From: Lophium mytilinum
Taxonomy: Eukaryota
Assembly: GCA_010093605.1 (NCBI GenBank)
Contig: MU004182.1
Location: 715,032-779,031 of the forward strand
DNA: 64,000 nucleotides
Direction of reading: 5' to 3'
In this document: piece after piece, positions 1 to 59,561 of the stretch
Layout: every line of letters begins with the position of its first letter
How positions within the stretch are numbered: position 1 is the stretch's first letter
The notes under the pieces: model-generated
Seen by the model: only the letters and a program-made list of their open reading frames with translations
Database searches by the model: none
What the model was told of the DNA's origin: nothing
Position numbers and translations under genes: made by a program

Positions 1-56
1 ACCTTAGCTGCCATACTTAGTAGCATTAACCGCAGACTCGCATCCACTCGTCCACC

Positions 57-1514
57 ATGCCGCCCAAACGCAACTCCCGATCTCAAGCCAAATCCAATTC
101 AACCCACAACACTTCCCAAGACGAAGCATCCAGCAACCCAAACCCCATACAAATAAAACCGCCATCTAGGCCAATTCCCACAAAACCAAATTTCACTGCA
201 ACGCCAACCCGATCCACAATCCCCAACCCCATACAAATAAAACCGCCATCTAGGCCAATTCCCACAAAACCAAATTTCACTGCAACGCCAACCCGATCCA
301 CAATCCCCAACCCCATACAAATAAAACCGCCATCTAGGCCAATTCCCACAAAACCAAATTTCACTGCAACGCCAACCCGATCCACAATCCCCAACCCCAT
401 ACAAATAAAACCGCCATCTAGGCCAATTCCCACAAAACCAAATTTCACTGCAACGCCAACCCGATCCACAATCCCCAACCCCATAAAAATAAAACCGCCA
501 TCTAGGCCAATTCCCACAAAACCAAATTTCACTGCAACGCCAACCCGATCCACAATTCCCAACCCTTTCAAACCAACCGCCAAACCAATCCCTTGTCTCC
601 GCCACTGCCCTTCCAATGTCAGCCCATCTCTCATCTTTACCCACGGCGCCGGCGGTGACCTCTCCGCCCCCGCCGTCGTCGACTTCTCAACCGGCTTCAC
701 AGCAATATCCCCGCTGCTCTGCTTCGAAGGGAGCAGTAACCTCGCATCCCGCGCCTCCGCATTCGCCGCTGTTATCGCGAAAGAAGAGTCATCTACCCAT
801 GGCTTCGCAGGCGCGTTAGGTGGCCGCAGTCTAGGCGCCCGCGCGGCGGTGGTTGCGGCCACTGAGCTGTTCAAAGAGGGCAGAAGGGCGCCGTGGCTTG
901 TGCTGGTGAGCTATCCGCTGAATGGGCCCAAGGGGGACGTAAGAGATGAAATCCTGCTAGCGTTGCCGAAAGAGGCGGAGGTGCTCTTTATTAGCGGGAG
1001 CAGGGATGGGATGTGTGATCTCGCGCAGTTGAATGAGGTGAGAGCGAAGATGGAAGCGAAGAGTCAGCTGGTTGTAGTGAGAGGAGCGGACCATGGGATG
1101 CATGTTACGCCTAAGAAAGCTACGAGTGCCGTTGGAGAGGAGACGGGGATGGTGGCGGCGGAATGGTTAAGTGAAGAGCTGTCATTTTTGACGGATATCG
1201 AGATTTGGTGGGATCAGGAGGAGGGGAACGTCACTAGGGAGCTGTATGGCACGGAGGATGAGGTGCCGGCATCAAATGGCAAGGTTAAAGAGAAGGTGGT
1301 GACAAAGAAGGAGGCGGCATCATCTGCACGAGCAAGGAAGTCGACAGCGACGCCATCTAAATACCCCAAAGTGTCGACAGAGCAGCTGGATAAGGATGAG
1401 AAATCGACTAGAAAGCGGAAGAGCGCTGCTACTGGTCCGGAAACCTCAAAGTTTGCTTCAAATCCTTCAGGAAATACGAGATCTTCGAAACGGAAGAAGA
1501 GCGCCACGAAATGA
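57..1514 (+). CDS. KANL3/Tex30-like alpha/beta hydrolase with N-terminal tandem repeats and a basic C-terminal tail
   Basis: 485-aa ORF. FTHGAGG oxyanion motif, GGRSLG nucleophile elbow, SYPL, GSRD and ADHGM (putative Ser-Asp-His triad); K/R-rich NLS-like tail. Confidence 0.8.
   Translation: MPPKRNSRSQAKSNSTHNTSQDEASSNPNPIQIKPPSRPIPTKPNFTATPTRSTIPNPIQIKPPSRPIPTKPNFTATPTRSTIPNPIQIKPPSRPIPTKPNFTATPTRSTIPNPIQIKPPSRPIPTKPNFTATPTRSTIPNPIKIKPPSRPIPTKPNFTATPTRSTIPNPFKPTAKPIPCLRHCPSNVSPSLIFTHGAGGDLSAPAVVDFSTGFTAISPLLCFEGSSNLASRASAFAAVIAKEESSTHGFAGALGGRSLGARAAVVAATELFKEGRRAPWLVLVSYPLNGPKGDVRDEILLALPKEAEVLFISGSRDGMCDLAQLNEVRAKMEAKSQLVVVRGADHGMHVTPKKATSAVGEETGMVAAEWLSEELSFLTDIEIWWDQEEGNVTRELYGTEDEVPASNGKVKEKVVTKKEAASSARARKSTATPSKYPKVSTEQLDKDEKSTRKRKSAATGPETSKFASNPSGNTRSSKRKKSATK
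138..565 (+). repeat. Coding tandem repeat, 5 x 84 bp (28 aa PNPIQIKPPSRPIPTKPNFTATPTRSTI)
   Basis: Unit starts (aacccc) at 141, 225, 309, 393, 477, then a partial unit at 561. Copies are nearly identical (copy 5 has IKIK for IQIK). Confidence 0.97.
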
Positions 1515-13378: not shown

Positions 13379-15895
13379 TCAGCCGGTGTTCATACCAGTC
13401 ATCTTTGCAAGCGCGTCTCGGTCAATCACTTCTTCTAGACACGTCCAATACACATCTCTCTTCCCCTGCTCCAAGTCCTTCATTTTGTCGAAGTCTGTCT
13501 TCCAAGCCGTACAAAACACTTTCAGCTCTTTGCAAGCTACGTCTCCATACTTTGCCAGGTACTCTTCCATTGCGTCCGTAACATTAAGGAGCATTAGCTC
13601 AATAGGAAGACTCGTTAGATAGTCGTCGTCATAAATGTCATCAGTCGGAGTATCGGCTCTGTCACAAGCGGATTTGCGCGCAAAGTGAAGAATTCGCTCA
13701 ACCATAAAGCCGATTTGGGTGTCGTCCACATCTCCATGGTCAGCCAGCGGTACGAACATTAGCTTCTCCCTACCCCTAATCAAGCGCATCATCTCGATGC
13801 AGCGTCGGTGCATACCAAAATAGTCGAAAGTTAGGCGGTACTCTTCCCAAAACATAGACTCCTTGATGGCTTTCAGTAGCTGCAATCTCCCGATATCGTG
13901 GGAACGTTGCCACGCTTCCCATTGAAGCCATCCGCATGCCTTTGAGACGTCGTGGCTCATTGCCAACCTGTATTGAGCAGCCTCAGAGAGGATTGCGTCG
14001 ATGTTTGGGACGCCCATTTCGCCTGGGTCGGACGCTAAACACCGACGTAGTAATAGGTATGCCACAGCGACGGATGGAATCAAGACCGCCTCAAACCTTT
14101 GTTTGGATTTCGTTGCGGTTATGAAGCTTTCCGATGACTGTAAGACGTTGATAGGTCTCTCGTCCACAAATATGCGTTTTTCCCCATGGATCCCAACGAA
14201 GGTGTTCATATCGGCCCATGATGGATAGTCCTTCGTGGTATGCTGAACCAGATTGTAAAGATGGGCCAGCGGTAAGACGGTCGAGCACCTGCTGATATAA
14301 TCCGAGCTAATTAAAGCCATCCGTATATTGATCGTAAACATCATCAGGCCGCAGAGCACGGGGTTCAGTTTGAAGTGTTCATGCTTCTCGAAGGTAGGCC
14401 AGTATCGCTCCTGGAATCTTTCTTGCTTCTCCTCCAACACATAATCGTCAATGATAAGCCTCAGCACGATGTTATGAATGCGCTCGATAAGCTCGTCTGC
14501 AGATTTCGGCCAGAATGAATGATCTGGGAAAGACTTGGAAAACTTCTGATGCTCTTCAATGATCTTCTTAACACGAAGAGCAGAAACCTTGAGATCGTTG
14601 AACGGCTTCGACTTTTTGTGCCGCACCGTATGGTTAACATCAAGGAATGTCTGAGCCACGAACGCGAACCATAAGGATGGCTTTCTATGCTCCAGGCACT
14701 GCGCAAGACTTTTGGTGATTTCGTCTGTGATAGGGAATGGTTGCTGAGTTTCTAGCAGAAAGCTGAAAACTTCCAAGCCTTGAAATAGAATAGCTCGATC
14801 TTCATTGAAGCGGCCAAGGGGTGACATGAACTCTCGTTGATTTCCTGCCTCGTGGTTTCTGCCGAGATTGTTCTTAAAACTTTGGAGAAAACGTTTGGAA
14901 AGTTCTGGGCTGTCGGCTGGCACATTGTCCACGTACTTTAACAACATGAGTTGAGCCGGGAGATGACACCAGGTTGCGAGATCTTGCAACTCGAGGTTGT
15001 ATGGCATACCAGAATCTACTGTACCCTTCGTGTTTTCCCCGCGAATTCTCCCAAGCAATCTGAAGAGGCGAAGAAGTTCCGTCTCCGCTGCCAGCTTGCA
15101 TTCGATATTAAACTCTGTTATCAAGCCTTTCGCGAGACCTAGAGCAATGTTCGTGATAACGGCGGCATTCATAAGATCGATCTCGCCCTTGAGGTACTCT
15201 GACCAGCTCTCACGCAAGAAGACCCTCATACTCTGCAAGTCATCGAAAAGGCAGAACATATGGAAAGTTCTGGGAGCCAGGAGTGAACCAAGGTCAGGGT
15301 CTGGTGCTCCTTGATTGTCCATGTCCTTGAAGTCATCATCCTCTTCAAGCTCATACTGTGCAGAGTCGTGCTCTTCCGGCTGTACGTTAAGCATGGGCTG
15401 AGTATCTTCAATCCCTAGAGCGGCATATTGTTGGCGTATCCAAGCGATAATGCTTTCGTCATCGTCGTCTTGGAGCTCATATGGCGGTGGATCCGCAGCC
15501 TCTTTAGTCGGTATGGCTCCCTTGCGCTCCAATATCATGCAGACCTCTTCCAAAACTGTAATAGGATGGGGATGACGACAGGCCCCGATGGCGTGCTCGT
15601 ATTTCTCTAGGCCCAGATACCAAATCCCGCAGCGCTTCCGCAGTGCTATCGCTCGTTTCATCTTTCCAAGGATCACGGGAGGAACGTCGATTTGATGGAG
15701 TACGATCACTTCGGCAATGGACTGGAGGGTGAAGTCTCTGAGCGTGATCCGGACTGTGCTTATCTCATTCGGTTTCGTCGGTATAATGTTATTGTATATC
15801 TCCGCTGTCTTGACTAGCCACCGGATGGAGCAATGAATGTCGGAAGTATAGCGCTTGTAGCTGCCGACCAGATTGGCAACTTCGGTGAGCGTCAT
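13379..15895 (-). CDS. DUF6604-like fungal protein, intronless
   Basis: 838-aa ORF. N-terminal SYKRY...WLVKTA...KRAIALRKRCGIWY...H and CLFDDLQSMR...W...IDLMNAAVITN resemble DUF6604 proteins (from recall). Confidence 0.7.
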   Translation of the reverse strand: MTLTEVANLVGSYKRYTSDIHCSIRWLVKTAEIYNNIIPTKPNEISTVRITLRDFTLQSIAEVIVLHQIDVPPVILGKMKRAIALRKRCGIWYLGLEKYEHAIGACRHPHPITVLEEVCMILERKGAIPTKEAADPPPYELQDDDDESIIAWIRQQYAALGIEDTQPMLNVQPEEHDSAQYELEEDDDFKDMDNQGAPDPDLGSLLAPRTFHMFCLFDDLQSMRVFLRESWSEYLKGEIDLMNAAVITNIALGLAKGLITEFNIECKLAAETELLRLFRLLGRIRGENTKGTVDSGMPYNLELQDLATWCHLPAQLMLLKYVDNVPADSPELSKRFLQSFKNNLGRNHEAGNQREFMSPLGRFNEDRAILFQGLEVFSFLLETQQPFPITDEITKSLAQCLEHRKPSLWFAFVAQTFLDVNHTVRHKKSKPFNDLKVSALRVKKIIEEHQKFSKSFPDHSFWPKSADELIERIHNIVLRLIIDDYVLEEKQERFQERYWPTFEKHEHFKLNPVLCGLMMFTINIRMALISSDYISRCSTVLPLAHLYNLVQHTTKDYPSWADMNTFVGIHGEKRIFVDERPINVLQSSESFITATKSKQRFEAVLIPSVAVAYLLLRRCLASDPGEMGVPNIDAILSEAAQYRLAMSHDVSKACGWLQWEAWQRSHDIGRLQLLKAIKESMFWEEYRLTFDYFGMHRRCIEMMRLIRGREKLMFVPLADHGDVDDTQIGFMVERILHFARKSACDRADTPTDDIYDDDYLTSLPIELMLLNVTDAMEEYLAKYGDVACKELKVFCTAWKTDFDKMKDLEQGKRDVYWTCLEEVIDRDALAKMTGMNTG

Positions 15896-16066
15896 GCCTG
15901 CGGAGTTGCTCGAGGGAAAAATGACTGGGGTTGGGGTGTTGAGAAGACATGGTGAGAAGGCTCTTCAGATAGAAGATGGAAGTTGTGAGCTCGAGGAAGT
16001 TGCAATGGCGGTGTTTTGTTTTGTTTGTGGTCTGTTGGAAACCACAATCGCCAGCAGGTAAGGCTT

Positions 16067-18228: not shown

Positions 18229-20408
18229 ATTGAAGAGTGATGGTGATGTAGATTGACTTTGGAAGAATGAATTGCAGTGATGGATGGCGAGTGAGAACTG
18301 AGGGCCAAAAGAATCATACTTGTAGTAAAGCAATTCATATTTCGGAGTTGCTTCCACTGCTGAATGCAACTCATTTGTCACAGCAATGTCGACAAACACG
18401 CCGGATGGCCCCTATCCGCGAACGTGACGAGATGTTGGCGAACATCCCAGCGAATGGCGCAACAAAGGATTTCACGATGAGTTCCCCATGCAGCATGTCA
18501 AGGCCAAAAAGAGACAAGTTGCGGGGGTTAGCATGCGCTGTAACTCCATACAGTGTGCTAACGGAGGATCAAGACGCCAGGGCCGGAGCCATGGTTTCCC
18601 GGGCGTGAGCGAAGACTGCTCGAGGCCACCGAAGAGATGAATGCGGGAGGCCAAGCTTTGTTGGCGTAGAGACTGACCAACCGGAGGAGACGCTACTGGC
18701 CGCTAAATATCAAGCTTAAATAGACCCGCAAACATCCCAGGGTCTGTCAGACAGGGTCTAGGCTGATCACTACGGCATACTAGACATGAGCGCATGGGAG
18801 AGCTTGAACAAGTGAGAGCTACTGGGAACGACCACGCTCGATTTGACCGAATAGGAGCGTACATCAGAGTTGGAGATGTTAAGAAGAGCTTTGTAATGGG
18901 GTACGACTCATGATTAGCTGACAAGCTAGAACCGTATTGCGAGGACTGTGAAAGTGCTCTCTGAACCAGCTGCGCTCACTGACGCACCTGAAACCCAAAC
19001 ATAGTTCAAGAGATGTGATAACTAACCTATGGAAAGCCCTTGTTCATCTGATTGATATTCAAAGGGATGAAGCCGTAACACTAGCAGCATTAGTAGCTCA
19101 ACGTATTAGTGTCGCTGCTCGCTCCCTTTGTGGGTTTCTGGTAAGTTGGTGGTTCAAGCGGTCGATTCAATTGCGTGGGCTTACAGTATGCCGTAGATTT
19201 AGCTTAGCTCCACCCACGTCATGTCTAACGCGGGAAGTTGGCCTTCCGAACTCAAAATCCAACCCGCAACTGCGCCCCTTTCGCCTTGTCCCACATAATA
19301 CTAATATGGCGAGAAACCCAAGACAGAGTCATATTTTTCTTCCTTGGCCGGGTTTCTCGGGCAGAGAGCATGCTCACCGTCATCAGGTTATTCCTGGCAT
19401 AGCGTCAGCGAAAGAATCTTCCTCTGCTCAACCGCATCGAGGGCGAAAGTCACTTTCTAACATCACCTCTAATGCGACTAATAGGTTGGCCGACGAAAAT
19501 CCCCAAAGCTCATAAGCCAATGATGTTTCGCATGTTGTCCCCGTGATTGACCTTGCGATGGATGTTGGAGAGCGTGGTGATTCTTAGTGCTGGCCAGCCC
19601 TAATTTCTTTCTAGTGCGTGGAGGCGCATTGGCTCCCGAATTCGCCATATCTAGTTTCTGACGGACCCGTTACTAGTTAATGAGGTTTGGCTTTGGTGTA
19701 GTCTAGCAGAATTGGGTCAAGTAATCTGTAGTTGCGGAATGGAAGGAAATTGGACGAAGTTTAGAAAGGGGCATTACCCCTCTAGTTACCGAGGCAGACG
19801 CTGATGGACCTTTTTCGAAAAAGTAATTGTCAATATGTTGCCTTCGCTGTTCGCAAGACAGGCTCGAATCGCCTCGTGAGTCCTACGTCATTAATGATTG
19901 TCGAAGAATGCGCAATCTCGCGCTTTTGGCACTTCACTGACTGGCTGTAATTGAAGCCTCTCGCTTTTCTAAATAACAAAACAAACAGTGATTGCTACCT
20001 ACCTCGCACCGATCATGCAGATGTGTCAGTCACGTGGCATGCACCTGACGTGGCGACTGTTCTCTTTGCCGAACCCCAGCGCCGGAGCTGGCTGCACCGC
20101 AGGCTTTGTCTAAACTTTACAATATCATCACTCCCTACAGCTTCACATGGGTTTGTAAAATTCCGGGCCTTTGACCCCAGGGACAGATCGTAGGGGTAAG
20201 GCATTGAACCAGATTCGAGGAAGCCATGGCCCCGGATTAGAAATGCCAATCCCTTTCTCTCACGATTAGACATCAGAACGCCATTCACGACACTAGGACT
20301 CTCTTTGATTCAGCTTGTTGTTTACAGCAACCTTCAGCAATCATGGTCTGTGCTCTTGTAGGAGACAGGATATGCCAGGATTACCCCACTACCCCAAGTT
20401 TCACCGTT

Positions 20409-20438
20409 CCGCAAAGCACCCCGCAAAGCGGATCCGCA
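20409..20438. promoter_or_regulatory. AlcR-type sites upstream of the esterase: CCGCA-N7-CCGCA plus AGCGG-AT-CCGCA
   Basis: CCGCA at 20409-13 and 20421-25; AGCGG at 20427-31 with CCGCA at 20434-38. Matches the WGCGG direct (7-bp) and inverted (2-bp) arrangements of A. nidulans AlcR targets. Confidence 0.65.
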
Positions 20439-20619
20439 GAGCCCCACGTTTTGAGCAACCTCCGAATCCAGTCAATGTATTTTCGATTGCCGCCATGTTG
20501 GTCAGCCTTCGCCCAAAGTGGGTCTCATGACCCCGTCGCTCTACCTCCGCCTCCGCAATATGGATGAACAAACCAATCAACTGCCAAACCAGTTGGTCTG
20601 ATAACCCCTAAAGTGGACC

Positions 20620-20795
20620 CAGCAGCCTAAGACGCAGGCCTGACAACCTCGGAGGTAGGCCTAACAAGATACGAGGTATGCCTTAGAAGATACGAGGTAG
20701 GCCTAATGCTACGAGGTCCGCCTAACAGCCCACGAGACAAGCCTTACTACCTCTAAGCCGGGTCTACCACCTCCAAGCCCGGGTCTAACGAAACA
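20620..20795. repeat. Degenerate minisatellite of about 19-21 bp
   Basis: Units ggaggtaggcctaacaagata / cgaggtatgccttagaagata / cgaggtaggcctaatgcta / cgaggtccgcctaacagccca / cgagacaagccttactacctc / taagccgggtctaccacctc / caagcccgggtctaacgaaac. Confidence 0.75.
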
Positions 20796-20981
20796 GCTCC
20801 CCCCGCTTCTGGACGGAGGAATGGACAGCCCTGAACCCCGCTCGCTCGGTGACGCCACCAAAGCACCAAAGCAGTAGCTACCTCTACGAAGCAACCGCGA
20901 TATATCACTCCTACGTTTCTTGTTCTGCCTTGATACCTGAAACTGCAGATATCTCTGACTACTGAAGTCTCAACCGAAATC

Positions 20982-22338
20982 ATGGGTAAACTCTCTCCGG
21001 AATCTCTCCAAACTCTCAAGCAGATAACCGAGGACGCGTGCGCCGATCCAGAGACCGGTCTTCCGGGTACAACTGTTGTCGTCGTTGGTAAAGATGGCAA
21101 AGAGCTCTTCGCGCATGCGGCAGGGAAGCGCGGGTATGGGAGTAGCGAGCCCATGACGCTGGATAGCATCTACTGGATTGCATCATGTACGAAGATGATC
21201 ACGGGTGTTGCTTGCATGCAGCTCGTTGAGCAAGGGACGCTAAAGCTAGATGATGCGGCACAGGTAGAGAAGTTGTGTCCTGAGCTCAAGGCTGTGAAGG
21301 TTCTTCAGAAAGATGGGAGTTTGGTCGATAAGAAAAGGGGGATCACTCTGAGAATGCTTCTTAGCCATACAGGTAAATTATTTAGACAGAACTGTTTCAT
21401 CATTCGCAGTGACAGCACAGCTAATCGTCATTGCAGCTGGATTTGGATACGCTTTCTTCAACAACGAACTGAGAGACTACAACAAACCACTCGGTTACGA
21501 CGAGTTCTCCGGGCATTTGAAAGATATAATACAGCCCCTCGTCCACCAGCCTGGAGAAGGATGGGAATACGGAGTAAGCTTCCATCCAAGCCCCCTTATC
21601 TTTACATACTTCGGAAACATACTATAGCTCAACTAGGTCAACATCGACTGGGCGGGCATCGTCCTCGAGCGCGCCACAGGCACCTCCCTAAACAACTACA
21701 TGCAAAAGCACATCCTCGCCCCCCTCGGCCTGCAGAACATGAACATGTTCCCGACCGCCTCCATGAAGCAGAACCTCGCCTACATGAACAGCCGCAACCC
21801 GGAAGGCAAGCTAGCACGCTACGACCACATCAACCGCCGCCCCCTCGTCGTCGAAGGAAACGACGTCGACACCTGCCTCAACAGCGGCGGCGCAGGCATG
21901 TTCGCGAAACCCCAAGAGTACTGTCAGATCCTAGCCACGCTGCTGAACGACGGCACGTCGCCTACCACCGGCGCGAAGATTCTGAGCAAAGCGACGGTCG
22001 ATGAGATGTTCAAGAACCAGATCCCGGACTTCCCGAACTTTGCTCGTCAGGGGGTTCCCGCTGCGAAGCCGTGGCTGACGAATGCCATCCCGGAGCTTTA
22101 TCCGATCCCTGGGGATAAGCCGCAGGGCTGGGGTCTTACGTTCATGCTTACCGAGGGTGCTACTGGGCGATCCAAGGGCACTGCGCAATGGGCTGGGCTG
22201 CCGAATCTGTGGTGGTGGTGCGACCGTGAAAAGGGGGTTGCTGGGATCATTTGCAATCAGATTCTGCCGTTCGTTGATATGAAGACGCTGGGTTTGTGGG
22301 GCGCGATTGAGACGACTGTTTATAAAGCTTTAGCGTAG
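20982..22338 (+). CDS. Beta-lactamase-fold serine esterase (family VIII / LovD-EstB-like)
   Basis: WIASCTK (SxxK), LLSHTAG, PGEGWEYG-VNIDWAG, SGGAG and WAGLPNLWWW motifs; two introns; no signal peptide. Confidence 0.92.
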
Positions 22339-22647
22339 TGGAATGGTGGTGATTTCCAGTGCCTTGATTTGATGATTGAATGGCAATATATAGCAAATAT
22401 ATCCTGCTACTACGACTTTCCCATTAGTTCAGGTGATAACTTGGAATCGCTCACTGCTTGTGTCCAGCAACAACCACTCAATTGCCAGTATAGATACTTA
22501 ATCCCCACAAAACGCCAGACTATTAGTTCCCTCTCAGGCCACCAATCACCCTGCGCCGACCCAATGAAAGAAACGATTGCTACGCCTTTTACCAGAAACA
22601 AAAACATCGGAGGATATCAGACACAAGCCGGACCAAAGGATATCACC

Positions 22648-25600
22648 TCACTGGTACGACGCAACCCCCGAAAACACAAACGGAAACGCCTCCCTGCCCG
22701 CCTCATCCGGCACCGAGCTACTGCACTGCCGAATCGCCTCCATGTCCGGACTAGGATGCTTCGCCCCCCACGCCCTCCCCGCCATCTCCTCCGTCACGTC
22801 CTTCACCGCCGTCGACAGCGCCGTCGCCGCCAAGAACGCCATATCGCTCTTCTTCCCCAGATTCCACAACGCCCGGATGCACGAACTGCAGCGCTGCTGA
22901 CATTGTGCGATCTCTGATTCCCGGGGAATCTCACCTCTCTCGTATCCTGAGAGCTTGGAGTAAGCGATGCGGTCGAGGAGGATATAGCCCGCCTTGCTGA
23001 ACGCGCGGATGAGCACGACGGTCCACGGCTCGGTGAGCAGCGCGCCCTCGCTGACCGCGAAGTGGAACTCGCGGGCTTGGGGGAAGGAGAGGTTGTAGCC
23101 CGGGCAGGAGCAGCGGCCGAGATCCGCGAGGACGTTTGCATTCTGCTCGCGGAGCTTCGCGACGAGGCGGGAGGAGCCGCGGACGGCGCGCTGCGACTCG
23201 AGCCCCATCTGCCCGTCGTCGATGAGCTCGATGATGTCGGCGAGCAGCAGCGCGGCGAGGTGCCAGTGGCCCGCGAGCACGACGTACCAGGACTGGATGC
23301 GCGGGGGCAGGGCGTCGTGCGCGGCGATGCAGGAGAGGATGAAGGGGTTGTAGCTGTCGTTCCAGTGCTGGTAGACTTGCAGCGCGTCGAGGATGGGTTG
23401 CTCGAGTTTTTCGTACATGGCGCACCGCGAGAGGAGGGTTTGGAGGTGGGTTACTTTGCGGAAGAGGAGGACTTTGATGGGCGCGGCGTCGCAGAGGGTG
23501 GAGGCGGCTTGTTCGTAGGAGCAGGGCCAGCGTGCTGCTTTGTGGCAGAAGCGGAGGTGTTTTTGCCGGAGGAGGAAGTCGCCCCATAGTTTTGAGTCGC
23601 CTTCTCGTGCGAGCATGGAGCGGTAAGTTGGAGAGGGGCTGCTGATGATGTCGTCTGGGGATATGTAGTGCCCTGGGAGATTGCCGTCCCGGATGTCGCT
23701 GTCTTCGTCTGAGACGACCAGGGGGCGTTTGTTCATGGCGGCGGAGAGAGTGTCGAACATGATGGCGAGCCAGAACAGGAGATCGAAAGTCTTACGGTCT
23801 TTAGTGCTGAGTATGTCGGGGTTATCTGCAGTCTCGGGAGAGGCTCTCTTCTTCTTTGCGATTGTCCGCTGTCTTTCTATACTTTCTAATTTGCATCGAT
23901 ATGTGAAGATTTGCCGTAGAGCAGTTTCTAAGAAGATCGGAGGACCTTCGAGCTCAGTCACTTCGTCTAGGCCGGCTATATCGGAGTCCGAAGTCTTGGA
24001 TACTACGGGTGTTGTTTGGAACGTTGAGGCGCCACGCGCAGTGGCAGAACAGTGTACTGATCGGGCCGATTCAGAACATGGAGGTGAAAGGCCAGGCCAG
24101 GGACCGTCGTTGAATTGCTTTGCAGAGCTTCGTCGTCGTCGCCCTTTGATAGCTCGAACGTGTTCCGCGATGTTTAGTGGGCGCTGAGTCAAAGAGAAGA
24201 TGATGTGTGCGAAGATGACACGGAAGGACTCGATTTCTGCAGAATCTTGTAATGCTCTTCGAGCCTGGTACCAGAATGACTCTTGAATGGATCGGTCAAA
24301 ATCAGTGTTCGGAGGTGACGAGCCATCTCCTCGAGTTGATTCAGCCCCATCATCGATTACTACGTCGTCTTTTGCATCGAACGACGAGAACTTAGCGGTA
24401 CTACGATTACTCGACTGAGCCCATTGAGTTGCAAAAGACACGATTGCCAGGTGGAGTGCCTTGGATGCTAATTTCTCTTCCGATTGAGTCAACGTACGTC
24501 CTCGAACGACTGATGAAGCGCGGTCAAGGTGGCAGACTCGGGCGAAAATCCGGTTTGACCAATTTGAACCCCATTCCTCTGACATTGACTCGTGCGGGTT
24601 GGAGCTCTTGAGTGATGCTGGTGAAGGAATGGTAATTCCATAAGGGCATGTCTTTTCTGTTAACCAGCAAGACAATGCGTTTTCCATGCTGTCGTGATAG
24701 ATGCGCAGTAGGCCGTTGGTCATAAGTGTCTGATTAGCGGACAATGTCAACTGCTGCTGTATGTGGTCGAATGGAGGCTCTATATATCCATCAAATGCTT
24801 GCGAGAAAGAAGGAGTACGTCTGTTGGAGTTCCGAGATCGGGTAGGGGCATATGAGGATGGTAATGAAGCAGTTGTCCAACTGCCGGATGTATGAGGTGG
24901 AAGCTCTTCTTCATTACCGACCTGATCACGATGCTGATCTAGAAGCGCAATCGGTGCTTGCGATAACCCCTGTGGAAGTGCCGCTGGGTCCCGCGTACTC
25001 TGGATCCGGGCTGGAGTAGGTTGGAAAGGCATGAAGTCTATGTTAGCACAGCCCTCTTTGTTCGGAGCCCATGACTGCGTCGAGATAGGTTCCGACGCTT
25101 CGAATAGATAGTCCCCCAGCTTTTCGTACTCGGTGAGATCAGATCCATCGTTCGAGGATAGAGGATGTGGAGGGAACTGCGAGCTTGGAAACGGTTGAAG
25201 GATTTGATATTCCAAGAATGAAGATAGATCAATCGGGGCAGTATCCGAGTTCGACGAAGTTTGGACATTGGAAGAAAAGCCCGGAGTGTGAGAGGTGGCG
25301 GTCGAAGCTTGCCGTTTTCTGGTGGTATTCTTCCTCTTTGATCCGGTTGCTTCCGCGATACTTCGTTTGCTGCGCTGCAAGATTACGCCATGTACAGACT
25401 TCAGCCATTCTAGCGTGCATCTCTTGCCGGTCTTCGCGCAATTCGAACATGGGCCCGTGGACGTTAGAACGGGATCTGACTGCTCATCTGCACTACTGTT
25501 AAGATTGAATCCTTCCATCTGGCATCAATATGCTAATACGCACGGTTTTCTAGGTATCCATTCAGGGTCCAGCCCAGGCCTGGTTCTGCCGTTGAAGTTT

Positions 25601-25817
25601 GGCGGAAAGTGGGGGAGGCGGACTCGTCTCCATTCGAGACTGGGTAGTTCACCAAAGTTACGTCGCAAGCACGCTTGCCTTTCCGGCATTGGTCGCAACT
25701 GCGGTGTTGTCGTCGGCCTCTTCCGGTAAATGGTGTCTCTTGATGGTGATGCGCGATCTGGTGAGGTCTGTTGGGAGAGTTCCATAGCTGTACTGGGCTT
25801 ACTGGAGAAAGCTGCAT
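22648..25817 (-). CDS. alcR: AlcR-like Zn2Cys6 transcription factor
   Basis: RRQHRSCDQCRKGKRACD...CSNCAKTGKRCTLEWL parallels A. nidulans AlcR (RRQNHSCDPCRKGKRRCD...CSNC...CTFNWL). Also LLRIYHDSMENALSCWLTE, LFWLAIMFDTLSAAMNKRPLVVSDEDS and LLTEPW blocks. Confidence 0.85.
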
Positions 25818-25923
25818 ATTCAGAGTAGTATATGGACTGAGTGTGGATAGAGTGAAGCAGTGGGGTGACCGCCGAGGGAGTAGGGGAGTAAGGGCGCGCA
25901 GATCAGACGGATCCCAGGGGTCA

Positions 25924-25942
25924 TGCGGGAAACGTTGCGGGG
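25924..25942. promoter_or_regulatory. AlcR-type direct repeat TGCGG-N7-TGCGG overlapping a CreA-type GCGGGG site
   Basis: TGCGG at 25924-28 and 25936-40, about 110 bp upstream of the alcR-like ATG; SYGGRG at 25937-42. Confidence 0.6.
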
Positions 25943-26485
25943 AACCCTGAAAACTATGGGTACTTCGCTGCATCAGGACTCGTATTGGCCTCTCAGCTGG
26001 AGGTGATCATCGCTTCGAGAGAAGGGCAACGTGTCTGATATTGCTCCGTCCGGGTTTCCGTCCATGTACGGCTTCACCAGGTATTCTCCAGATTTTGGGA
26101 TATGTTCCCAAATAACCGATCCATCCACAGTTGATTCAACTCCCAGCGAGATGGAGTGGGTTTATGGAGTACCCCGGATTTCGGGCGGTCCCCACATATT
26201 ACACGGCATGCATCAGGGTTCGACGTTTACAAATCCATTCACTCAAGTGCCCCAGGTTCGAGAATTGCTTGACACGGAATCCAAAGCCTCTCCCTGGAGC
26301 GGAATTCATTTATCTGATACATAGGCTACGGCTCGATACATCTCAGTGGTGGTCTCAACGAACTTTAAATCAACATTACGGGGTTTGACATTCCTACAAA
26401 TTTAGAACCATCGCGTGAGGCCGTGAAAGGCATTTGAATATCGAAGTTATGTTCCTGACCAATATCAAAAAGCCCGAGAGATAAT

Positions 26486-28209
26486 CTATTTCACGGTCCT
26501 GAACCCCTTCCACCCCGGCAACGCCGCCCGGATTTCCTTCGCATATTCGGGAATCCCACCAGCGTAATTGACCTGCTCAAACGCCTTTCCAGGCAAACTG
26601 CCACCCATGTAGGTTGACTTGGTCGTCGGGAAGAGCGAGATATCGGATAGAGCATTGATACGTGCCTTCCACTCCTTAGTCGCCTCCGGGGTAGGATCAA
26701 TAAATTTCAGCCCTTCGCGCTCGATCTTCTTGATCGTGTCAACGATCCAGCGGCCCTGGACCTCAACGGTCGAAGGACCGTTGCTCAGGAGAGTTGGGCC
26801 ATGGGGGCCGTAGAGATGGAACTGGGACAGTCAGTAACAGAATTCTACATGGAAGAGGGAAACACAGGAAGAAAGAGTATGCTTACCATATTTGGGTATC
26901 CGCTAACCGTCGTCCCAAGATACGTATTGGCCGCGGCCTTCCACTCCTCATTCAGCGTCGTGCCATGCACACTCTTCAACCCCATATGTGTCATACCGCC
27001 CGTGGTGATATCAAAACCGGTAGCAACAGCAATGACATCGAACTCATGCAGTGTTCCGTCCGCCGTCAGAATGCCCTTAGGCTGGAACTCGACAATAGGG
27101 TTCGTCTTGATGTCGAACACATCCACATTCTCCCGGTTGAACTGCTCGTAGTAGTTGTTCTCGAGGCACGGCCGCTTCACGCCAAACGGATGCGGTGGTT
27201 CCAAAGGAGCGAGGAGTTCGCGCTTCTTTGGATCTCCAATGCGCGGGCGCACGTTGCGTGCCCAGAAGTCGTATGCCGCGCGGTTAGCTTTCGGGTCAAA
27301 AAGCATATCTTTGTAGGTCCCAAGCCAGAAGTCGAAGCCACCGTGGTCCCAAAGGGAGTGGAAGAAGGCGTCTTGCTCCTCTGCATTATCGTCAAACGTA
27401 TCCTTCTCAGAGAAGCTGAAGAGGAAGCCACCGAAGCACTTCTCGCGAAGTTCAAAGAGGCGAGGATACCACCTCTTCGCGGCGTTCTGCTCCTCAGCAG
27501 TGAGTTTGTGCTTGCCCATGGGCACAGCGAGGTTGGGCGTGCGCTGGAAGACAGTCACGGCGCCAGCTTCGGGGCCCCAAGCTTGGGTAATTTGGACACC
27601 AGAGGCACCGGTGCCAATGACGGCGCAGCGCTTGCCTTTGACGTCGATGCCTTCTTCGGGCCAGAAAGCGGAGTGGTGGATTATACCCTCGAAGGAGTCA
27701 ATGCCCTTGTAGTCAGGGATATAACGCTTAGCGGCGAAGCCTGCGGCGACGACGAAGTATTTGCTTTTGGCGGTGCGGCCGTCTTCGGTCTTGACGTGCC
27801 ATTTGCCTTCTCCTTCTTGGAATTGGGCATCGACGACAACGCTCTCGAACGAGCAGTCTTTCTTGATGTCGAGGACTTTGTCTACATGGTCAAAGTAGGC
27901 ACGCAGCTCCTTGTAGTCTGGGTAGTTGGTGCTCCAGGTCCAGTCTTTCCAGACTTCGGGTATGGAGTATTCGTACTCTGGAACCTCCGAGTCCACGTTG
28001 GCACCAGGGTACCTATTCCAGCGCCATGTTCCGCCGAGATCTGTGCCGGCTTCGAAGATCACAGCCTTGAGGCCAAGCTGTCGAAGTTTGTGTAGGATGA
28101 AAACACCGCCGAAGCCTGCGCCGACGATGATGGCATCGATGTCGAGGTCATCTGCGTACGGACCGGTGGTAGCCCTTCGGCGGGCGTATTCTCTGAGTTC
28201 TGATTTCAT
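26486..28209 (-). CDS. Type I Baeyer-Villiger monooxygenase (cyclopentanone monooxygenase-like)
   Basis: GAGFGG, GGTWRWNRYPG, fingerprint FEGIIHHSAFWP (FxGxxxHxxxWP), GTGASG, ATGFD. One intron near 26825-26887; last exon ends WKGFRTVK*. Confidence 0.93.
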
Positions 28210-28428
28210 ATTGGTGAGATGAGCTAGGAATCAAAGAAGGGACAAAGAGATCCTCAACACTGAGAGAGTTGGAGTTGATAGGATTGAATTGAAAGTTATT
28301 GAATATGGACAAAACCGCTCACTTATCTATCACAGATTCATACGCGTCCGCAAGATCGATTTCGAATATTGCTAGGCAGCTACGTGACTTCGCGATAATC
28401 ACATGGTTCCCCACACTTGGTTCAAGGA

Positions 28429-28468
28429 TGCGGATGTAATGCGGAGCCGCAGGGTGAGGGGGCTGCGG
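28429..28468. promoter_or_regulatory. AlcR-type sites upstream of the BVMO including the palindrome TGCGG-AG-CCGCA
   Basis: TGCGG at 28429, 28440 and 28464; CCGCA at 28447; further CCGCA near 28348, 28543 and 28563. Confidence 0.65.
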
Positions 28469-28830
28469 AATTCTCAGAAGCGCAAAAGTCTCGACCAATA
28501 CATCGCGGGAGCCGGTATGCCCTCCCCTGCATTTTCTGCCCTCCGCATGCGTCGTTGCTTACCCGCAATCCAGGAACCCCTCATCTAGTCCGTAGGGTCG
28601 GTTCCGACTCCAAGTTACGCTATTGTCTAGGCGCGTGAGTGTTTCGGATATCTCAAAGCGTTGTATTGTGAGAGTCGAACTTGGGAAGTCGACCGGATGT
28701 AGACCACACATTTCGACGTTATTGCCTAGATCATCAAGGATCAAATATCAAAGAGTTTAGTGCAGATGAGCTGCTGCGTAGGATTGAGGGGATTTGATTC
28801 TACCGAGTACGGCTCAACCTTGCACCGTCA

Positions 28831-29303
28831 TCAAGCTTCTAAGACCTCTTCATCCCTCCGCTTATGTCGGGTCAGAGATACCCGAGTCGTCATCAGCTCA
28901 TCCACATTCGAAGCCCAGAAGCTGAAAAGTGTGCCCAAGCCCGAAAATGCGATGGTAACCAGCATTACTGTGTGGTATTCTTGATTAATTGCCAGCTTAT
29001 AGGCAGCGATACCTGCAACCTCGATTGTATCTGTCAAGTCATCAACCGCAGCAAAAGCCGGAGGTGTACCCACGGTGGTGGCAGACAAGAAACTCGGCAC
29101 TTATGGCGCTGGAAGTCTGCCTTTTCCATAGCCAGCAGTACGATAGCCGGAATGGTCATTTCAAGACGGTTTTTCAACACCACGGCGTAGATTTTTGATG
29201 CTACAGCGGATACAGCGGAGCGGATTAAGCCGGCTATGCCGACTGCTGTTCCGATCTCGTTCTGGTCATCGACGACGGTGCCAACCATTGCGCGGCCACG
29301 CAT
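28831..29303 (-). pseudogene. 3' remnant of a TRI12-like (fungal trichothecene efflux pump family) MFS transporter
   Basis: QNEIGTAVGIAGLIRSAVSAVASKIY...NRL and, in another frame, AGIAAYK...TVMLVTIAFSGLGTLFSFW...NVDELMT match the TRI12 C-terminus. Frameshifted, and the N-terminal majority is missing. Confidence 0.7.
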
Positions 29304-30221
29304 GTGTTGACGAAATGAACAGGAAGGCGTGAATGCGGCTACGTATACTAATAGCGAGACTGGTGTTCTTCGATTCTGAGCTGGACGACGACGACTTCGA
29401 TTTGCATAGAGACTCGCGAACGTTTGTGCTATGAGAGAAACCGCCTTTGATGACGAGAGTTACCCCTAGAGCTGTGTAGATAGCTTCTAGCCGTGAGTGA
29501 CGTTTGTATTGCCACAGCGTTGGGGTGCATCCATATTCATGACTTCGTTGATGATACTATCCATCCACACATGCTACGATAACTTGGAACAGCTTGCTGT
29601 GATGGCTGCATATTTGCGTCCTTGTTCTGGCTTGAGCCTCGCGTGTTCGACGTGGTGTCCAGGAGATGGTGATGGTAGGAAGTCCGAGGGTTAACGGGCG
29701 ACCTAGACATCAGGAATACGCTAGACTACATCAAGTACGATAGATTCACGTGACCCAGGATTCGAAGATATGAAAGTAGGCCCATAAACCCTCAATAGAG
29801 TACACAAGGTCTCTGGCTCTGACAGTCGGAGTCTCCTCATCCCTCTTCCGTCGTCTATATTGATGGTAGGAGGTGGTATCGAGTCATCACGTGCATATAC
29901 TAGCAGACGGCGTCAAAACGCGATGAAGCCATGCTGGGCCAGCAGCGAGAGTGCTGTACAATTTAATGGTTTTGTTGTATCCGTCTACACCGGAATTAGC
30001 TTGAAGCACTCTCATTAAGGCTAGCATCGGTAAGTCTTACCCCTTCCAGACCGTTAGCGAACACAGCTTTGGTGTTGTAAAGGGTAGCTATTAAGTCGGA
30101 AGTTAACTCCGCACAACCATTCTTTGTTCCCTATCTCCTGGCACAAGCCACCATCTGCGCAGTTCCCGCGATCAACGCTAGGATAAACACTCGGGGATAG
30201 CCATGGTTAAGAGCTCATCAT

Positions 30222-30254
30222 CCTCGGTGCTAAGATGAACCGAACCGACCTCGG
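30222..30254. promoter_or_regulatory. Two CCTCGG (FarA/FarB-type) sites upstream of the PEX5-like gene
   Basis: CCTCGG at 30222-27 and 30249-54, within 175 bp of the ATG. Confidence 0.5.
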
Positions 30255-30394
30255 AGCTCGAAAACTTCACGGGTGTCACATGCCAATATCACACGCGTCA
30301 AAGTTATGAGATCACGAACCACGAGCTTTTAACACTTTTTCCCAGCTTTACCTTTTCATTTCAAGGGTTTCAAAAAGGAGTCTGAGAGTTGTTG

Positions 30395-32283
30395 ATGGCC
30401 TTTTTTGCGAGTTCTGACTGCGCCACTGGTCCGGTGAAGCAGCTTTCGAGATTCGTGCAGAGGGATCCCGGAGTGCTTCGGGATAGGGTCAGGAGTGGCC
30501 AGGGTAAAAGACAGCTTGCGGGCTTTCGATGTCAGAGTTCGAGAGGGGATAATGTAAGTGGATTTGGGCTTCTCGCTCTCGTACAGCACTTGTCAGAACT
30601 CAGAAGGAAATTTCTGACATTTTTTAGTCTGCGAATACGCTTGCGGACTTTTGGTCCTCAAAGGTGCTAGATCTGCCACAAGAATCTCTGGATTATCTCT
30701 GGTGGCAGAAGAACGTCCTCCGAGCTTCTGAACATGCGGTTGAGGACTTTGCGAATCCGGTCCTTCCGGAGACTTGGGCAGCGAGCTTTCTAGAAGAGAG
30801 AAGAGATGTCAACAGCAGGCCATCGCCGCGTTATCCAAGGCAAACGTACTCCACGGCTACAGTACCTCAAAAAGCCCATCAGAGTGAGGAGGTTGTCAAG
30901 ACCGTCTCGGATCCAAGCCCGTTCACGGCCTTGCGAAGCTCATTCGCAAGGTCGTCTTACCAACTTAATCCGCATCTGCATTATTCATCCCACCTCGCCG
31001 ATAGCTCTTGGATTGGACAAGAACATGCGTCAACTAAAGACTACGAACTGAAGGCATCCCCGAATACATGTGGTCAATCTGCAGAATGGGATTCCATGTT
31101 TACAGAAGTAGAACGACAGACTAGCCCACACCAGGAAATCGACCATGAAGAGACTATTGCACAGGCCCCTCTCAATACGCTCGAATCGAATACCGGAGCA
31201 ATATCCAGAGAAGAAGCATGCGTATCAGGAGCTCTCCAAGACCTTCCTCAACATTATAGATACGACTTCCAACCCGACAACCCTTTCACAGGGAGCTGGC
31301 GAGCCTTCGAAGAAGGCATGGCTATTCTCGAGAAAGAAGAAAACTTAGCGTATGCTACACTCGCCTTCGAGGCTGCATGCCAGAAAGACCCGCTGAACGT
31401 GGAAGCATGGAAGATGCTCGGCTCGACACAAGCCGAGAACGAGAACGACGCAGCGGCCATGAAAGCTTTCGAAGATGCCTTAGAGCTCGACCCTACCAAC
31501 GGCGATGCGCTTCTCGGTCTTGCGATCTCCTACATCAACGGAGGTGAGTACTAGGGGCGCGGTGCGCGCCTCATTTCTCTTTTATCTATTTTTGCTGACA
31601 CCAAACCAGGCCAGCAGCAAAAGGCCTACACAGTCCTCGAGAGCTGGCTAACCTCCAAATACCCCCAAGTTACTTCCCCCTCCAGCTCCTCCTCCGATGA
31701 CCCTCATACCCGTTTGATTTCCCTCTATCTCTCCGCAGCCCTCCTCCATCCCACCGGACCCCAACTCGACCCAGGCGTCCAGGTCGGCCTCGGCATGCTC
31801 TTCTTCAGCACATCACACTATGCCGAGTCTCTCGACTGCTTCTCTACCGCCCTCTCCCTGACCCTCACCTCTCCTAACTGCACTGTTACGCGCTCCCAGA
31901 GCTCAAACGCCCAGTGCCAACCACATCTTCTCTACAACCGCATCGGCGCTTCTTTAGCGAAGTTGAGGCGATACGACGACGCGGTAGAGGCTTATGAGAT
32001 GGCGCTAGTGGCAAGGCCGAATTATGTGAGGGCGAGATATAATATGGCGGTGGTGGCGTTCGCGAAAGGGGAGTATGAGGAGTGTGCAAGGCAGGCGGTT
32101 AGGGCGTTGGGGGAGAGGGGGGCGGGGAGGATCAGCAGTGGAGGAGGGGGAAGGGAGGGATTGGAGGATGATTTGATGAGTGCATTGAAGAAAGCGTTGT
32201 CGAATATGGGGAAGTGGGATCTTGGTGAGGGAGTGAGACCTGGGATATATCTGGGGGATTTGAGGCGGGCTTTAAATGTTTGA
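30395..32283 (+). CDS. Divergent PEX5-like PTS1 receptor (TPR protein), 3 exons
   Basis: N-terminal MAFFASSDCATGPVKQL with the conserved Cys; WxxxF motifs WAASF and WDSMF; YDFQPDNPF; TPRs with AWKMLGSTQAENE, DPGVQVGLGMLF, LYNRIGASLA and PNYVRARYN. Confidence 0.82.
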
Positions 32284-32988
32284 GAGGAGAGACGGGTGGG
32301 GGTGTTGTATTAGTAGGTGTGTATGACAAGGCTTGTTATTATCTATCTAGAGGACTTTCAAGTTCTATTCTACTTTGTCTCTTGGTCACGCTGCGTCACT
32401 GTCATCCACCTTCCGAAATGATTCCGTGGAGGGTGGGTGGCAATATCAGAGCCTGAACTGCGACCATGTTGCTGATTTGCTCATCTTTTTCGAAGCTAGC
32501 TTGGGGTTATTTTCTCTGTGACTCGTTGGGGCTTGGAGCGCTTGGTGGTGGATTTTCCTACCATCTTCTAGGCTGAATCCGAAATGTCTGCCCAGGTGAT
32601 AGTGTCGCTCCAACGCCGCGAAGATCCGCTCTCCGCATACCGAACGTCCTAGATATCTCAGATGCGAAGAAGATTATCTACTTCGCTGAGTATGATGTTT
32701 GCAGAAACCTTAGAAGATTATAGAGTTTGCCATCAGTACAGTTCAACCCTCCATAGTGTTCCTTGCGGTCATAACAAAAGACGCTTTCGTTCCTCGCTCA
32801 ACTAGAACCGTCCACCAGCAATGGCTTCCTCAAATCGAATTAACTTGATCAACTCAGATAGTTCTTGCATGTTTGTAACCAGCCAAAGCAATCTACATAA
32901 GACGTACGCCAGCCGGACTCTCTGCTCGCATTCAAATCTCTCCATCTTCCTCGGCTGGCAATCCTTCCTAGACGAACCCAACACCAAG

Positions 32989-58293: not shown

Positions 58294-59561
58294 ATGGCGA
58301 CCGCACAGGAGCACCAGGTATGTTACCGTCTTTCGCTCGCCAATTTTCGTCCGTCGCGGTTACATTCGGGCTGACGCGTGATAGAATGCCGCTGCGGTAG
58401 GTGGAGAGACACCATATAGTAAGGAGACCAACGGGACCAGCGCCATTGACCACGGCGCTACAACTGCCACAAAACAGAGAGCTCCCTACGATTATGGTAT
58501 GCCTTCCTCGAGCTTCAATTTTTCGATAAACGTCGACTTTTTCTATCGTACTCATGCTCATGCCAACAGGTGGCAACCCACTCGCACACGTTCGCACGAA
58601 CGATTCTCAACTTCGCATGCCAGCCTTTGGTGGTGAATTCCAGCCCGGTCTTTACAGGTAGGACGACTGTGAATGTCGAAGTGAACCGATTCACTAACTT
58701 TCTCGTAGGCCACCAAACAGGAAGTTTGGTAACCCAGCCCCATTGGGTCTCTCAGCTTTCGCCTTGACCACCTTCGTGCTCGCGCTCATTAATATGGGTA
58801 CGCTCAACATCAACGAGCCCAACATCGTTGTTGCGCTCGCCTTCGGCTATGGTGGTCTTGTGCAATTGCTCGCTGGCATGTGGTAAGTTTCAATGCGCCA
58901 GCTCCCGAACCACCACAAACTCACACGAACCCAGGGAAATGGCTGTCGGGAACACCTTCGGTGCCACCGCGCTCTCTTCCTACGGAGGATTCTGGCTCTC
59001 CTTCGCCATCATCCTGACCCCTGGCGGCTTCGAAATTGCGTCGACTCTCGAAGCCAAGGGCCCAGCACCCTTCCTCAACTCCTTCGGCCTCTACCTTATG
59101 GGCTGGTTCATCTTCACCTTCATGCTGCTCATCTGCACCTTGAGGTCCACGGTTGCCTTCTTCACTCTATTCTTCACGCTCGACATGGCCTTCCTCCTGC
59201 TCGGCATTGGGTACCTCCAGCACGGCGCTACTGGCCCCAACACCGGCTGCATCAAGGCCGGAGGCGTCTTCGCCGTCCTCGCCGCCTTCCTTGCGTGGTA
59301 CAACGCGCTTGCCGGTATCGCGGACAGCTCCAACAGGTACGTTCGGCGCACCGCTCTGACCCACTTCCGTTCATATATTTTCATGCATATATTTTCATGC
59401 ATGCACGCACAATGCATCATAGATTAAAGTCCTCAACAACTAACATCCCATGCAGCTTCTTCGTCATCCCCGTCGCCCACTTCCCGTGGAGCGACACCGG
59501 CCGCGAGCGCCGCAACAAAGTCGACAACTCGGATGCGCGCGACGCCGCCCATGTCGCATGA
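58294..59561 (+). CDS. acpA: Gpr1/Fun34/YaaH acetate transporter (AcpA-type)
   Basis: AFGGEFQPGLY, NPAPLGLSAF signature, YGGLVQLLAGMWE, GNTFGATALSSYGGFW; multiple short introns. Confidence 0.88.

Follow-up and report, generated by a model that had tools for sequence, protein, structure and literature searches.

A putative AlcR-controlled pairing of a Baeyer-Villiger monooxygenase with a serine esterase in Lophium mytilinum and related loci in other ascomycetes

Introduction

AlcR, the activator of the ethanol (alc) regulon of Aspergillus nidulans, has become a model among fungal activators and is widely employed as an inducible switch; its inducers include acetaldehyde and 2-butanone. Bacterial ketone operons such as mekRAB of Pseudomonas veronii MEK700, acmAB of Gordonia, cpnBC and chnBC combine a Baeyer-Villiger monooxygenase (BVMO) and an esterase, there of the alpha/beta-hydrolase type, with a regulator. 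The subject here is a 64,000-nucleotide stretch of DNA from Lophium mytilinum (hereafter the window), in which a gene for an AlcR-like factor stands between genes for a BVMO and a serine esterase; the window belongs to contig C2, in a fungal assembly totalling 43.4 Mb. We consider it probable that these three genes form a carbonyl-inducible regulon that would carry a ketone via an ester or lactone to an alcohol and an acid.

The trio would thus follow the same logic as the mekRAB-type operons, i.e. ketone to ester or lactone and on to alcohol and acid under a dedicated activator, whereas its genes are eukaryotic, intron-bearing and separately promoted, its activator is of the Zn2Cys6 class and its esterase has the beta-lactamase fold. 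In the accessible portions of the respective papers, MekA is reported to be active on ketones (PMC4966971), 2-butanone is described as a strong but non-physiological inducer of AlcR (PMC5371717), and an AlcR site is given that contains TGCGG-AA-CCGCA (PMC13606033). Judged by sequence, every part of the module falls into a known family; the new element would be the fungal, AlcR-family version of the BVMO-esterase-regulator logic. Such a linkage was not found in the open-licence literature (PMC and bioRxiv); comparative Aspergillus papers, for instance from the Felenbok/Flipphi group, may mention alcR-cpmA, and the existing 'CpmA' annotation suggests that curators have looked at the BVMO.

Three apparently transcribed genes without an adjacent dehydrogenase

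Along the window, the esterase gene (plus strand) is followed by the factor and BVMO genes (both minus strand), and all three splice to open frames (409, 1037 and 552 amino acids, respectively; Table 1). Contigs of run X1, whose RNA origin is a program's guess and in which GT-AG introns are skipped, back three of the four modelled introns by their joints, namely 25488-25543 in the factor gene, 26822-26886 in the BVMO gene and the first intron of the esterase gene; no joint for the second esterase intron was listed among these contigs. Because the contigs skip their introns, all three genes appear to be transcribed, contig depth being unusable for expression levels or for ranking genes. Coordinates, open spliced frames and contig joints together confirm the arrangement that a preliminary description had read from the letters, with the AlcR-like factor between BVMO and esterase. 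Its remark that no alcohol or aldehyde dehydrogenase gene is adjacent also holds: the sole listed ADH_N match in the window lies about 35 kb away, at the far end of the window (that scan returned at least 91 matches genome-wide), and none of 15 ALDH matches falls in the window (11 of 61 candidates scored).

A BVMO of the AFL210 type

The BVMO is 100% identical to a database protein of L. mytilinum, the next closest being that of Mytilinidion resinicola (98%), and databases label its orthologues, by automatic naming, 'steroid monooxygenase (CpmA)', the label used in Eurotiales, or 'cyclopentanone 1,2-monooxygenase'. Two fingerprints, FxGxxxHxxxW(P/D) and (A/G)GxWxxxx(F/Y)P(G/M)xxxD, define the enzymes of this type; the window protein carries the former as FEGIIHHSAFWP at residue 173 and the latter as GGTWRWNRYPGANVD at residue 59, together with both Rossmann motifs (GAGFGG at 30 and GTGASG at 199) and the catalytic arginine in FGVKRP at 342. 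Its top PDB matches are all BVMOs, the best being 6Y48 (E 3.6e-220), which the available part of the source identifies as BVMO AFL210 of A. flavus (PMC12015234). Over 552 amino acids it shares 69% identity with the A. flavus protein that matches the aligned part of 6Y48, and Thr511 corresponds to Thr513 of AFL210 at the control-loop position, where 117 of 120 matches have threonine. By sequence, the window BVMO is an orthologue-level relative of AFL210 ('CpmA'), and the 69% identity argues that it would oxidise ketones with NADPH and O2. AFL210 is known as a biocatalyst; neither a physiological role nor a regulator for it was found in the open-licence literature searched. The next-closest solved relative, AFL838 (5J7X), oxidises 2-alkanones with a Km of about 0.01 mM and prefers aliphatic and aryl ketones, according to the accessible text of that study (PMC4966971).

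One low-depth RNA contig lacks a 123-base GT-AG intron (window positions 28200-28322) whose removal takes away the initiation codon of the BVMO. Backwards from this joint, a stop precedes any in-frame ATG, and the form looks like a minor, non-productive isoform.

An esterase related to LovD and PcEST

PF00144 scores above its cut-off on exons 1 and 3 of the esterase gene, and the protein displays the motifs S68-C-T-K71 (SxxK), W173EYG with Y175, and W361-A-G. Among solved structures, the closest are those of the family VIII-type esterases LovD and PcEST (E ~1e-43 and ~1e-38, obtained with the full-length A. lentulus orthologue as query), with which it has the SxxK, Tyr and WxG motifs in common. 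These relatives are distant, they include one transferase and one hydrolase, and no polyketide cluster was recognised at the window. The protein is 68-70% identical to A. fumigatus and A. lentulus proteins whose accession numbers fall between those of the alcR-like and BVMO genes, and we predict that it would hydrolyse esters or lactones.

A regulator with an AlcR-like DNA-contact segment

The sole PDB match of the zinc finger of the factor, with exon 1 as query, is A. nidulans AlcR (1F4S, E 0.005), whose DNA-binding domain is also deposited as 1F5E. A basic N-terminal arm, an RKGKR recognition segment and cysteines running from C41 to C115 place it in the Zn2Cys6 class. The DNA-contact segment is kept (RRQHRSCDQCRKGKRAC in the window factor versus RRQNHSCDPCRKGKRRC in A. 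nidulans AlcR); basic arm and first zinc-finger half are near-identical in the two proteins, and both have a long loop between the third and fourth cysteines, of 53 amino acids in the window factor versus 16 in AlcR. The intron of the gene sits inside this loop, as the RNA contig joint confirms, and the loop spans 11-58 amino acids across homologues, reaching 56-58 in Cirrosporium, Claussenomyces and Sarea.

Of 7999 candidates scored against the C-terminal region, 645 are homologous at E<=1e-20, several of them bearing the name alcR; the region matches no Pfam family. Its AlphaFold model (all-helical, mean predicted local distance difference test score 69.9) matched no fold in the PDB at E<=0.001 and therefore says nothing on an inducer pocket. 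The A. fumigatus records P0524, P0526 and P0528 (1306-1335 amino acids) also fall into the AlcR-like cluster; P0524, a read-through model joining esterase and factor, is probably an annotation merge of two adjoining genes.

The window factor is the only close AlcR-like gene of its genome. A second one, at C5:1294553-1296448, is 31% identical, sits on a long branch and has housekeeping neighbours; no BVMO, esterase or alcohol dehydrogenase was recognised within about 10 kb on either side of it.

A palindrome confined to the enzyme promoters

The palindrome WGCGG-N2-CCGCW, whose form TGCGG-N2-CCGCA is in common with the site of A. nidulans AlcR, occurs exactly twice in the window, at 20427 in the esterase promoter and at 28440 in the BVMO promoter, and these promoters are also the only two places where at least four half-sites fall within 60 bp. 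A mean of 0.41 palindromes is expected by chance, and 6 of 100 shuffled windows reach two, so the window taken alone is suggestive; the case is strong because the palindrome is conserved in the promoters of orthologous enzyme genes. In 16 such promoters (two from the window and 14 from related loci, 11.1 kb in all), nine exact palindromes are spread over seven promoters where a Markov model expects 0.03, and seven over five of 14 when the window promoters are left aside. None of the 16 holds an exact palindrome with a spacer of 0-1 or 3-10 bp. With at most one mismatch, 21 palindromes are found in 12 of the 16 (1.0 expected), and half-sites number 104 (41 expected).

The preliminary description had claimed WGCGG repeats for all three promoters, and this stands for the two enzyme genes, with their conserved palindromes, but not in the same sense for the regulator gene, whose lone 7-bp-spaced direct repeat is neither rare nor conserved (13 other regulator promoters do not conserve it). 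Because 14 regulator promoters (10.1 kb) contain no exact palindrome and no excess of half-sites (37 versus 41 expected), the proposal that the factor regulates itself through a site of its own is not supported. Direct repeats of this spacing were dropped as evidence altogether, since five of the seven in the window lie outside the module promoters.

Elsewhere in this genome, a search for exact palindromes gave none in 59 regions around ADH_N matches, at 11 ALDH loci, at nine other BVMO-like genes or at four loci of esterase paralogues; the loci searched extend 1.5 kb beyond each match, and the dehydrogenase scan was aimed at the palindrome rather than at direct repeats or single sites. From sequence signatures, we take locus L110 to be the ADH1-like gene and loci L092 and L123 to represent the aldA-like gene. 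The 2.1 kb preceding L110 and the 3 kb preceding L123 hold neither exact nor one-mismatch palindromes, and six strict TGCGG-WW-CCGCA sites elsewhere have no obvious catabolic neighbour by inspection. Within these searches, the palindrome is shown to be restricted to the enzyme promoters and conserved there, as a putative AlcR-type site.

Sites resembling the CreA motif SYGGRG number 7, 8 and 3 in the three promoters versus about 3 expected, and they overlap WGCGG sites in all of them (at 20419, 25937 and 28441). The two motifs share letters, and an overlap of CreA and AlcR sites is known for alcA. With counts modestly above background, these sites were judged weak and left unused.

Partners kept together in reshuffled order

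A tblastn search was run on 32 metagenome loci with an AlcR-like factor, many of them short; 12 contain the esterase and 6 the BVMO, so that 14 have at least one of the two enzymes and 4 have both. Where at least 2.4 kb is available upstream of the zinc finger, 12 of 16 loci hold an enzyme; the remaining four are L027 and the near-identical Thermoascus-like assemblies L020, L022 and L026, and the BVMO of L022 (match P0156) may lie beyond the fetched flank.

In 17 named species, belonging to four filamentous classes plus one Lipomycetes yeast, factor and BVMO are one to three locus or accession numbers apart; the species were picked by hand and so give a count, not a rate. They are Cirrosporium novae-zelandiae, Claussenomyces sp., Thermoascus crustaceus, Dipodascopsis uninucleata, Paecilomyces variotii (with two copies), P. 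lecythidis, A. fumigatus, A. lentulus, A. fischeri, A. udagawae, Lineolata, Rhizodiscina, Zopfia, Phlyctema, Penicillium citrinum, P. hetheringtonii and P. chermesinum. Factor, esterase and BVMO bear consecutive numbers in A. fumigatus (KAH1980851/52/53), and GFF64627/29/31 of A. lentulus carry the names alcR, LovD and BVMO. The linkage in related genomes on which the preliminary description had staked its reading is thus present, in these 17 species for factor and BVMO and in 14 of the 32 metagenome loci for one or both enzymes.

Order and orientation vary, from esterase-factor-BVMO to a BVMO divergent from the esterase or divergent from the factor, and the genes flanking the module differ between the related loci inspected. 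Reshuffled order and differing flanks therefore point to selection, rather than passive synteny, as what would hold the partners together.

Two observations concern individual lineages. In L020, L022 and L026, an ABC transporter gene lies beside the factor with exact palindromes on both sides (183 and 6663), and this transporter may have been recruited into the regulon. In D. uninucleata (P0024/P0150), where factor and BVMO are adjacent, the BVMO is 75% identical to that of the window versus 69% for the Aspergillus orthologues, and horizontal transfer is possible.

Relation to the ethanol-type AlcR

How does this factor relate to the AlcR that governs ethanol genes? The window gene adjoins a BVMO and an esterase, whereas A. 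nidulans AlcR is linked to alcA, alcM, alcS, alcP and alcU; neither the window nor the inspected related loci showed neighbours of the alcA, alcM, alcS or alcP type. The absence of a conserved site in its own promoter and of palindromes at the ADH1- and aldA-like promoters also sets it apart from the A. nidulans alc regulon. Its C-terminal region shares 43-47% identity with short-loop Aspergillus and Penicillium proteins from the clade to which 1F4S is most similar.

A tree of the C-terminal region (77 rows; IQ-TREE quick search with Shimodaira-Hasegawa-like approximate likelihood-ratio support) was built from the listed matches, among which full-length A. nidulans AlcR does not appear. The window factor falls into one group with those of Mytilinidion, Glonium and Lepidopterella, and members linked to a BVMO or an esterase are spread throughout; the Lineolata factor groups with Eurotiales rather than with Dothideomycetes. 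A clade of 24 rows (support 100), mostly short-loop forms of Aspergillus, Penicillium and Talaromyces, is nested among linked Eurotiales forms, several branches having supports of 95-99. The four members checked (those of P. manginii, P. waksmanii, P. cosmopolitanum and P. chermesinum P0493) lie far from the CpmA gene of their own genome. The zinc finger of A. nidulans AlcR scores 82.8 bits against a short-loop member versus 53.8 and 58.0 against two BVMO-linked Eurotiales forms, and on this zinc-finger placement AlcR appears to belong to the Eurotiales paralogue clade nested among BVMO-linked forms. The tree suggests a duplication within Eurotiales.

The window gene is best taken as a member of a widespread, BVMO-linked and probably ancestral AlcR form, of which the ethanol-type AlcR would be a derived Eurotiales paralogue. 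This polarity is preferred because the short-loop clade occurs, in our sample, in Eurotiales alone, and not because of the outgroup, which did not prove the root: in an approximately unbiased test (22 rows, 2000 replicates), placing the C5 paralogue next to the short-loop clade was not rejected (deltaL 18.8, p-AU 0.12).

Published A. nidulans expression data offer a lead. As listed in the accessible part of PMC5371717, the NapA-dependent genes include AN5421 'steroid monooxygenase' (2.5) and the adjacent AN5422 'beta-lactamase' (3.8) along with alcA (2.8), alcS, alcM, alcP, aldA and alcR; no connection of the pair to AlcR is drawn in that part. In a suberin microarray, as far as the available part of the report goes, AN5421 matches the sign of alcR in six of six contrasts and AN5422 in five of six, and the final time point brings no rise in alcA (PMC4117967). 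We hold it about evenly balanced whether the ancestral task of the AlcR family in ascomycetes was to switch on the BVMO-esterase pair for ketone degradation, with the ethanol AlcR of A. nidulans as a late Eurotiales duplicate that captured alcA and aldA, kept the DNA site and the carbonyl sensor, and may still control AN5421 and AN5422 in trans.

Proposed mechanism and its alternatives

A ketone or an aldehyde would activate the AlcR-family factor, which would then bind the WGCGG-N2-CCGCW palindromes of the BVMO and esterase promoters and thereby induce both genes. BVMOs insert oxygen next to a carbonyl, and SxxK esterases split esters. Using FAD (flavin adenine dinucleotide), NADPH and O2, the window BVMO would insert oxygen beside the ketone carbonyl, turning a methyl ketone into an alkyl acetate or a cyclic ketone into a lactone, and the SxxK esterase would split this product to an alcohol and an acid, or to a hydroxy acid. 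General alcohol and aldehyde dehydrogenases and acetate or beta-oxidation routes encoded elsewhere in the genome would take the products on. The central proposal of the preliminary description, an AlcR paralogue wired to a ketone pathway rather than to ethanol, survives in this form: it is consistent with the conserved module, with the palindromes in the enzyme promoters and with their absence from the ADH1- and aldA-like genes, but neither autoregulation via the regulator's own promoter nor the inclusion of a transporter is supported.

Several points weigh against a dedicated ketone regulon. Factor and BVMO lie far apart in Sarea resinae (001704 versus 000490) and in Cryomyces minteri (07453 versus 07723, on short contigs), and several Pleosporales-like loci keep just esterase and factor within the DNA fetched; the trio is therefore not obligatory. 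Several of the positive loci, moreover, come from near-identical Pleosporales-like species and are not independent. Four of the 16 enzyme promoters (L005, L009, L010 and L018) lack the palindrome even at one mismatch, and genome-wide it occurs 143 times versus 166 in the control, i.e. at chance level, so it is informative only through position and conservation. The closest characterised relatives of the esterase, LovD and PcEST, act on statin esters rather than on simple acetates or lactones. AN5421 and AN5422 are two of about 200 NapA-dependent genes, and their neighbour AN5423 also matches the sign of alcR in six of six contrasts, if more weakly, in the part of the microarray report available (PMC4117967). 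The orthology of AN5421 and AN5422 to the module is based on names and adjacency, which makes the expression data a lead rather than weighty support.

Two alternatives keep the regulon and change its purpose or its extent. In the first, the same genes would serve to detoxify or remodel larger carbonyls, turning over terpenoid or steroid ketones, or aldehydes to formate esters, instead of supplying carbon from simple ketones. AFL838 is reported to make formate esters from aldehydes, the automatic labels of the orthologues name steroids and cyclopentanone, the esterase is closest to enzymes working on bulky statin esters, and an ABC transporter stands between two palindromes in the Thermoascus-like loci. 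Most related loci, however, have no conserved transporter, and the inducing strength of 2-butanone (PMC5371717) and the preference of AFL838 for aliphatic and aryl ketones (PMC4966971), both taken from the accessible parts of those papers, speak for smaller substrates; we regard this purpose as unlikely.

The second, to which we likewise assign a low probability and which is compatible with a ketone regulon, holds that the factor is a general AlcR that would also drive ethanol genes in trans, the trio being just the physically linked portion of a larger alc regulon. The DNA-contact segment conserved with A. nidulans AlcR, the lack of another close AlcR-like gene in the genome and, within the excerpted expression data, the co-variation of the A. 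nidulans monooxygenase/beta-lactamase pair with alc genes would all fit, and AlcR can also use direct repeats. The promoters of the ADH1-like gene and of the aldA-like L123, free of the palindrome even at one mismatch, and the six strict sites without an obvious catabolic neighbour argue the other way.

A pair of secondary-metabolite tailoring enzymes, i.e. a BVMO with a LovD-type acyltransferase under a pathway regulator, is very improbable. EstA provides an esterase step in aflatoxin biosynthesis. MoxY, in the source excerpt available, provides a BVMO step there, and LovD transesterases are the best structural relatives of the esterase. Yet no polyketide synthase, non-ribosomal peptide synthetase or terpene synthase was recognised among window open reading frames of at least 170 amino acids (by inspection, with 20 frames scanned against Pfam) or in the related loci inspected, and the trio alone is kept across five classes. 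That the three genes are neighbours by descent only, with WGCGG repeats arising by chance, might be read from the borderline shuffle result in the window and the chance-level genome count, but is hardly credible and largely refuted because the palindrome is conserved in promoters, where, its spacer held at exactly 2 bp, it tracks the enzyme genes through changes of order and orientation that leave the partners together.

The transporter remnant and other neighbours

Table 1. Coordinates of the module genes, the promoter sites and the transporter remnant in the window
Feature	Position	Strand	Details
AlcR-type site cluster, esterase promoter	20409..20438		CCGCA-N7-CCGCA direct repeat overlapping palindrome AGCGG-AT-CCGCA (20427-20438); ~550 bp 5' of ATG
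Serine esterase, beta-lactamase fold (PF00144), LovD/PcEST-like, 409 aa	20982..22338	+	exons 20982-21372, 21437-21573, 21637-22338
AlcR-family Zn2Cys6 factor, 1037 aa	22648..25817	-	exon 1 25817-25544, intron 25543-25488, exon 2 25487-22648; start codon inferred
TGCGG-N7-TGCGG direct repeat, regulator promoter	25924..25940		~110 bp 5' of regulator ATG; present in sequence, function doubtful
Type I BVMO, 552 aa	26486..28209	-	exons 28209-26887, 26821-26486
AlcR-type site cluster, BVMO promoter	28429..28468		four half-sites including palindrome TGCGG-AG-CCGCA (28440-28451); ~235 bp 5' of ATG
TRI12-type transporter remnant, C-terminal part	28846..29276	-	two frames, break between 29151 and 29091

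The preliminary description had added a decayed transporter to the module. A frameshifted TRI12-type fragment of the major facilitator superfamily is indeed present, 43-60% identical to its paralogues L038 and L039 (PF06609) and with no N-terminal part found in the window, but its membership was rejected, since none of the 32 related loci has a match. A spliced contig of depth 297 (28584-32768) spans the remnant, without a gap at the frame break, and the tetratricopeptide-repeat (TPR) gene beyond it; its introns lie at 29985-30040 on the minus strand and at 30554-30627 and ~31542-31607 on the plus strand. Such a structure hints at a transcribed minus-strand pseudogene that ends about 130 bp from the BVMO palindrome and was merged by the assembly with the TPR transcript. 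The TPR gene (30628-32283, plus strand) presumably resembles the C-terminal half of a PEX5-type receptor.

Further off, a gene of the GPR1/FUN34/YaaH (AlcS/Ady2) family (58768-59427, plus strand) is separated from the module by about 30 kb, and none of the 32 related loci contains a match to it. Upstream of the esterase are a DUF6604 gene (13379-15964) and a spliced gene for a ferritin-like protein (PF13668; 17030-18319), both on the minus strand. An alpha/beta-hydrolase-like open reading frame at 30-1514 (plus strand) contains about five tandem copies of a 32-residue unit rich in proline and threonine at 99-686.

Significance

A conserved unit of AlcR-family factor, BVMO and esterase bears on the question why AlcR senses ketones at all. 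The module would offer a natural role for a structurally solved family of biocatalysts, the physiological substrates of which are mostly unknown (PMC4498894), and it supplies candidate genes for the breakdown of methyl ketones or cycloalkanones by fungi. The linked factors also represent natural AlcR variants, possibly with different inducer ranges.

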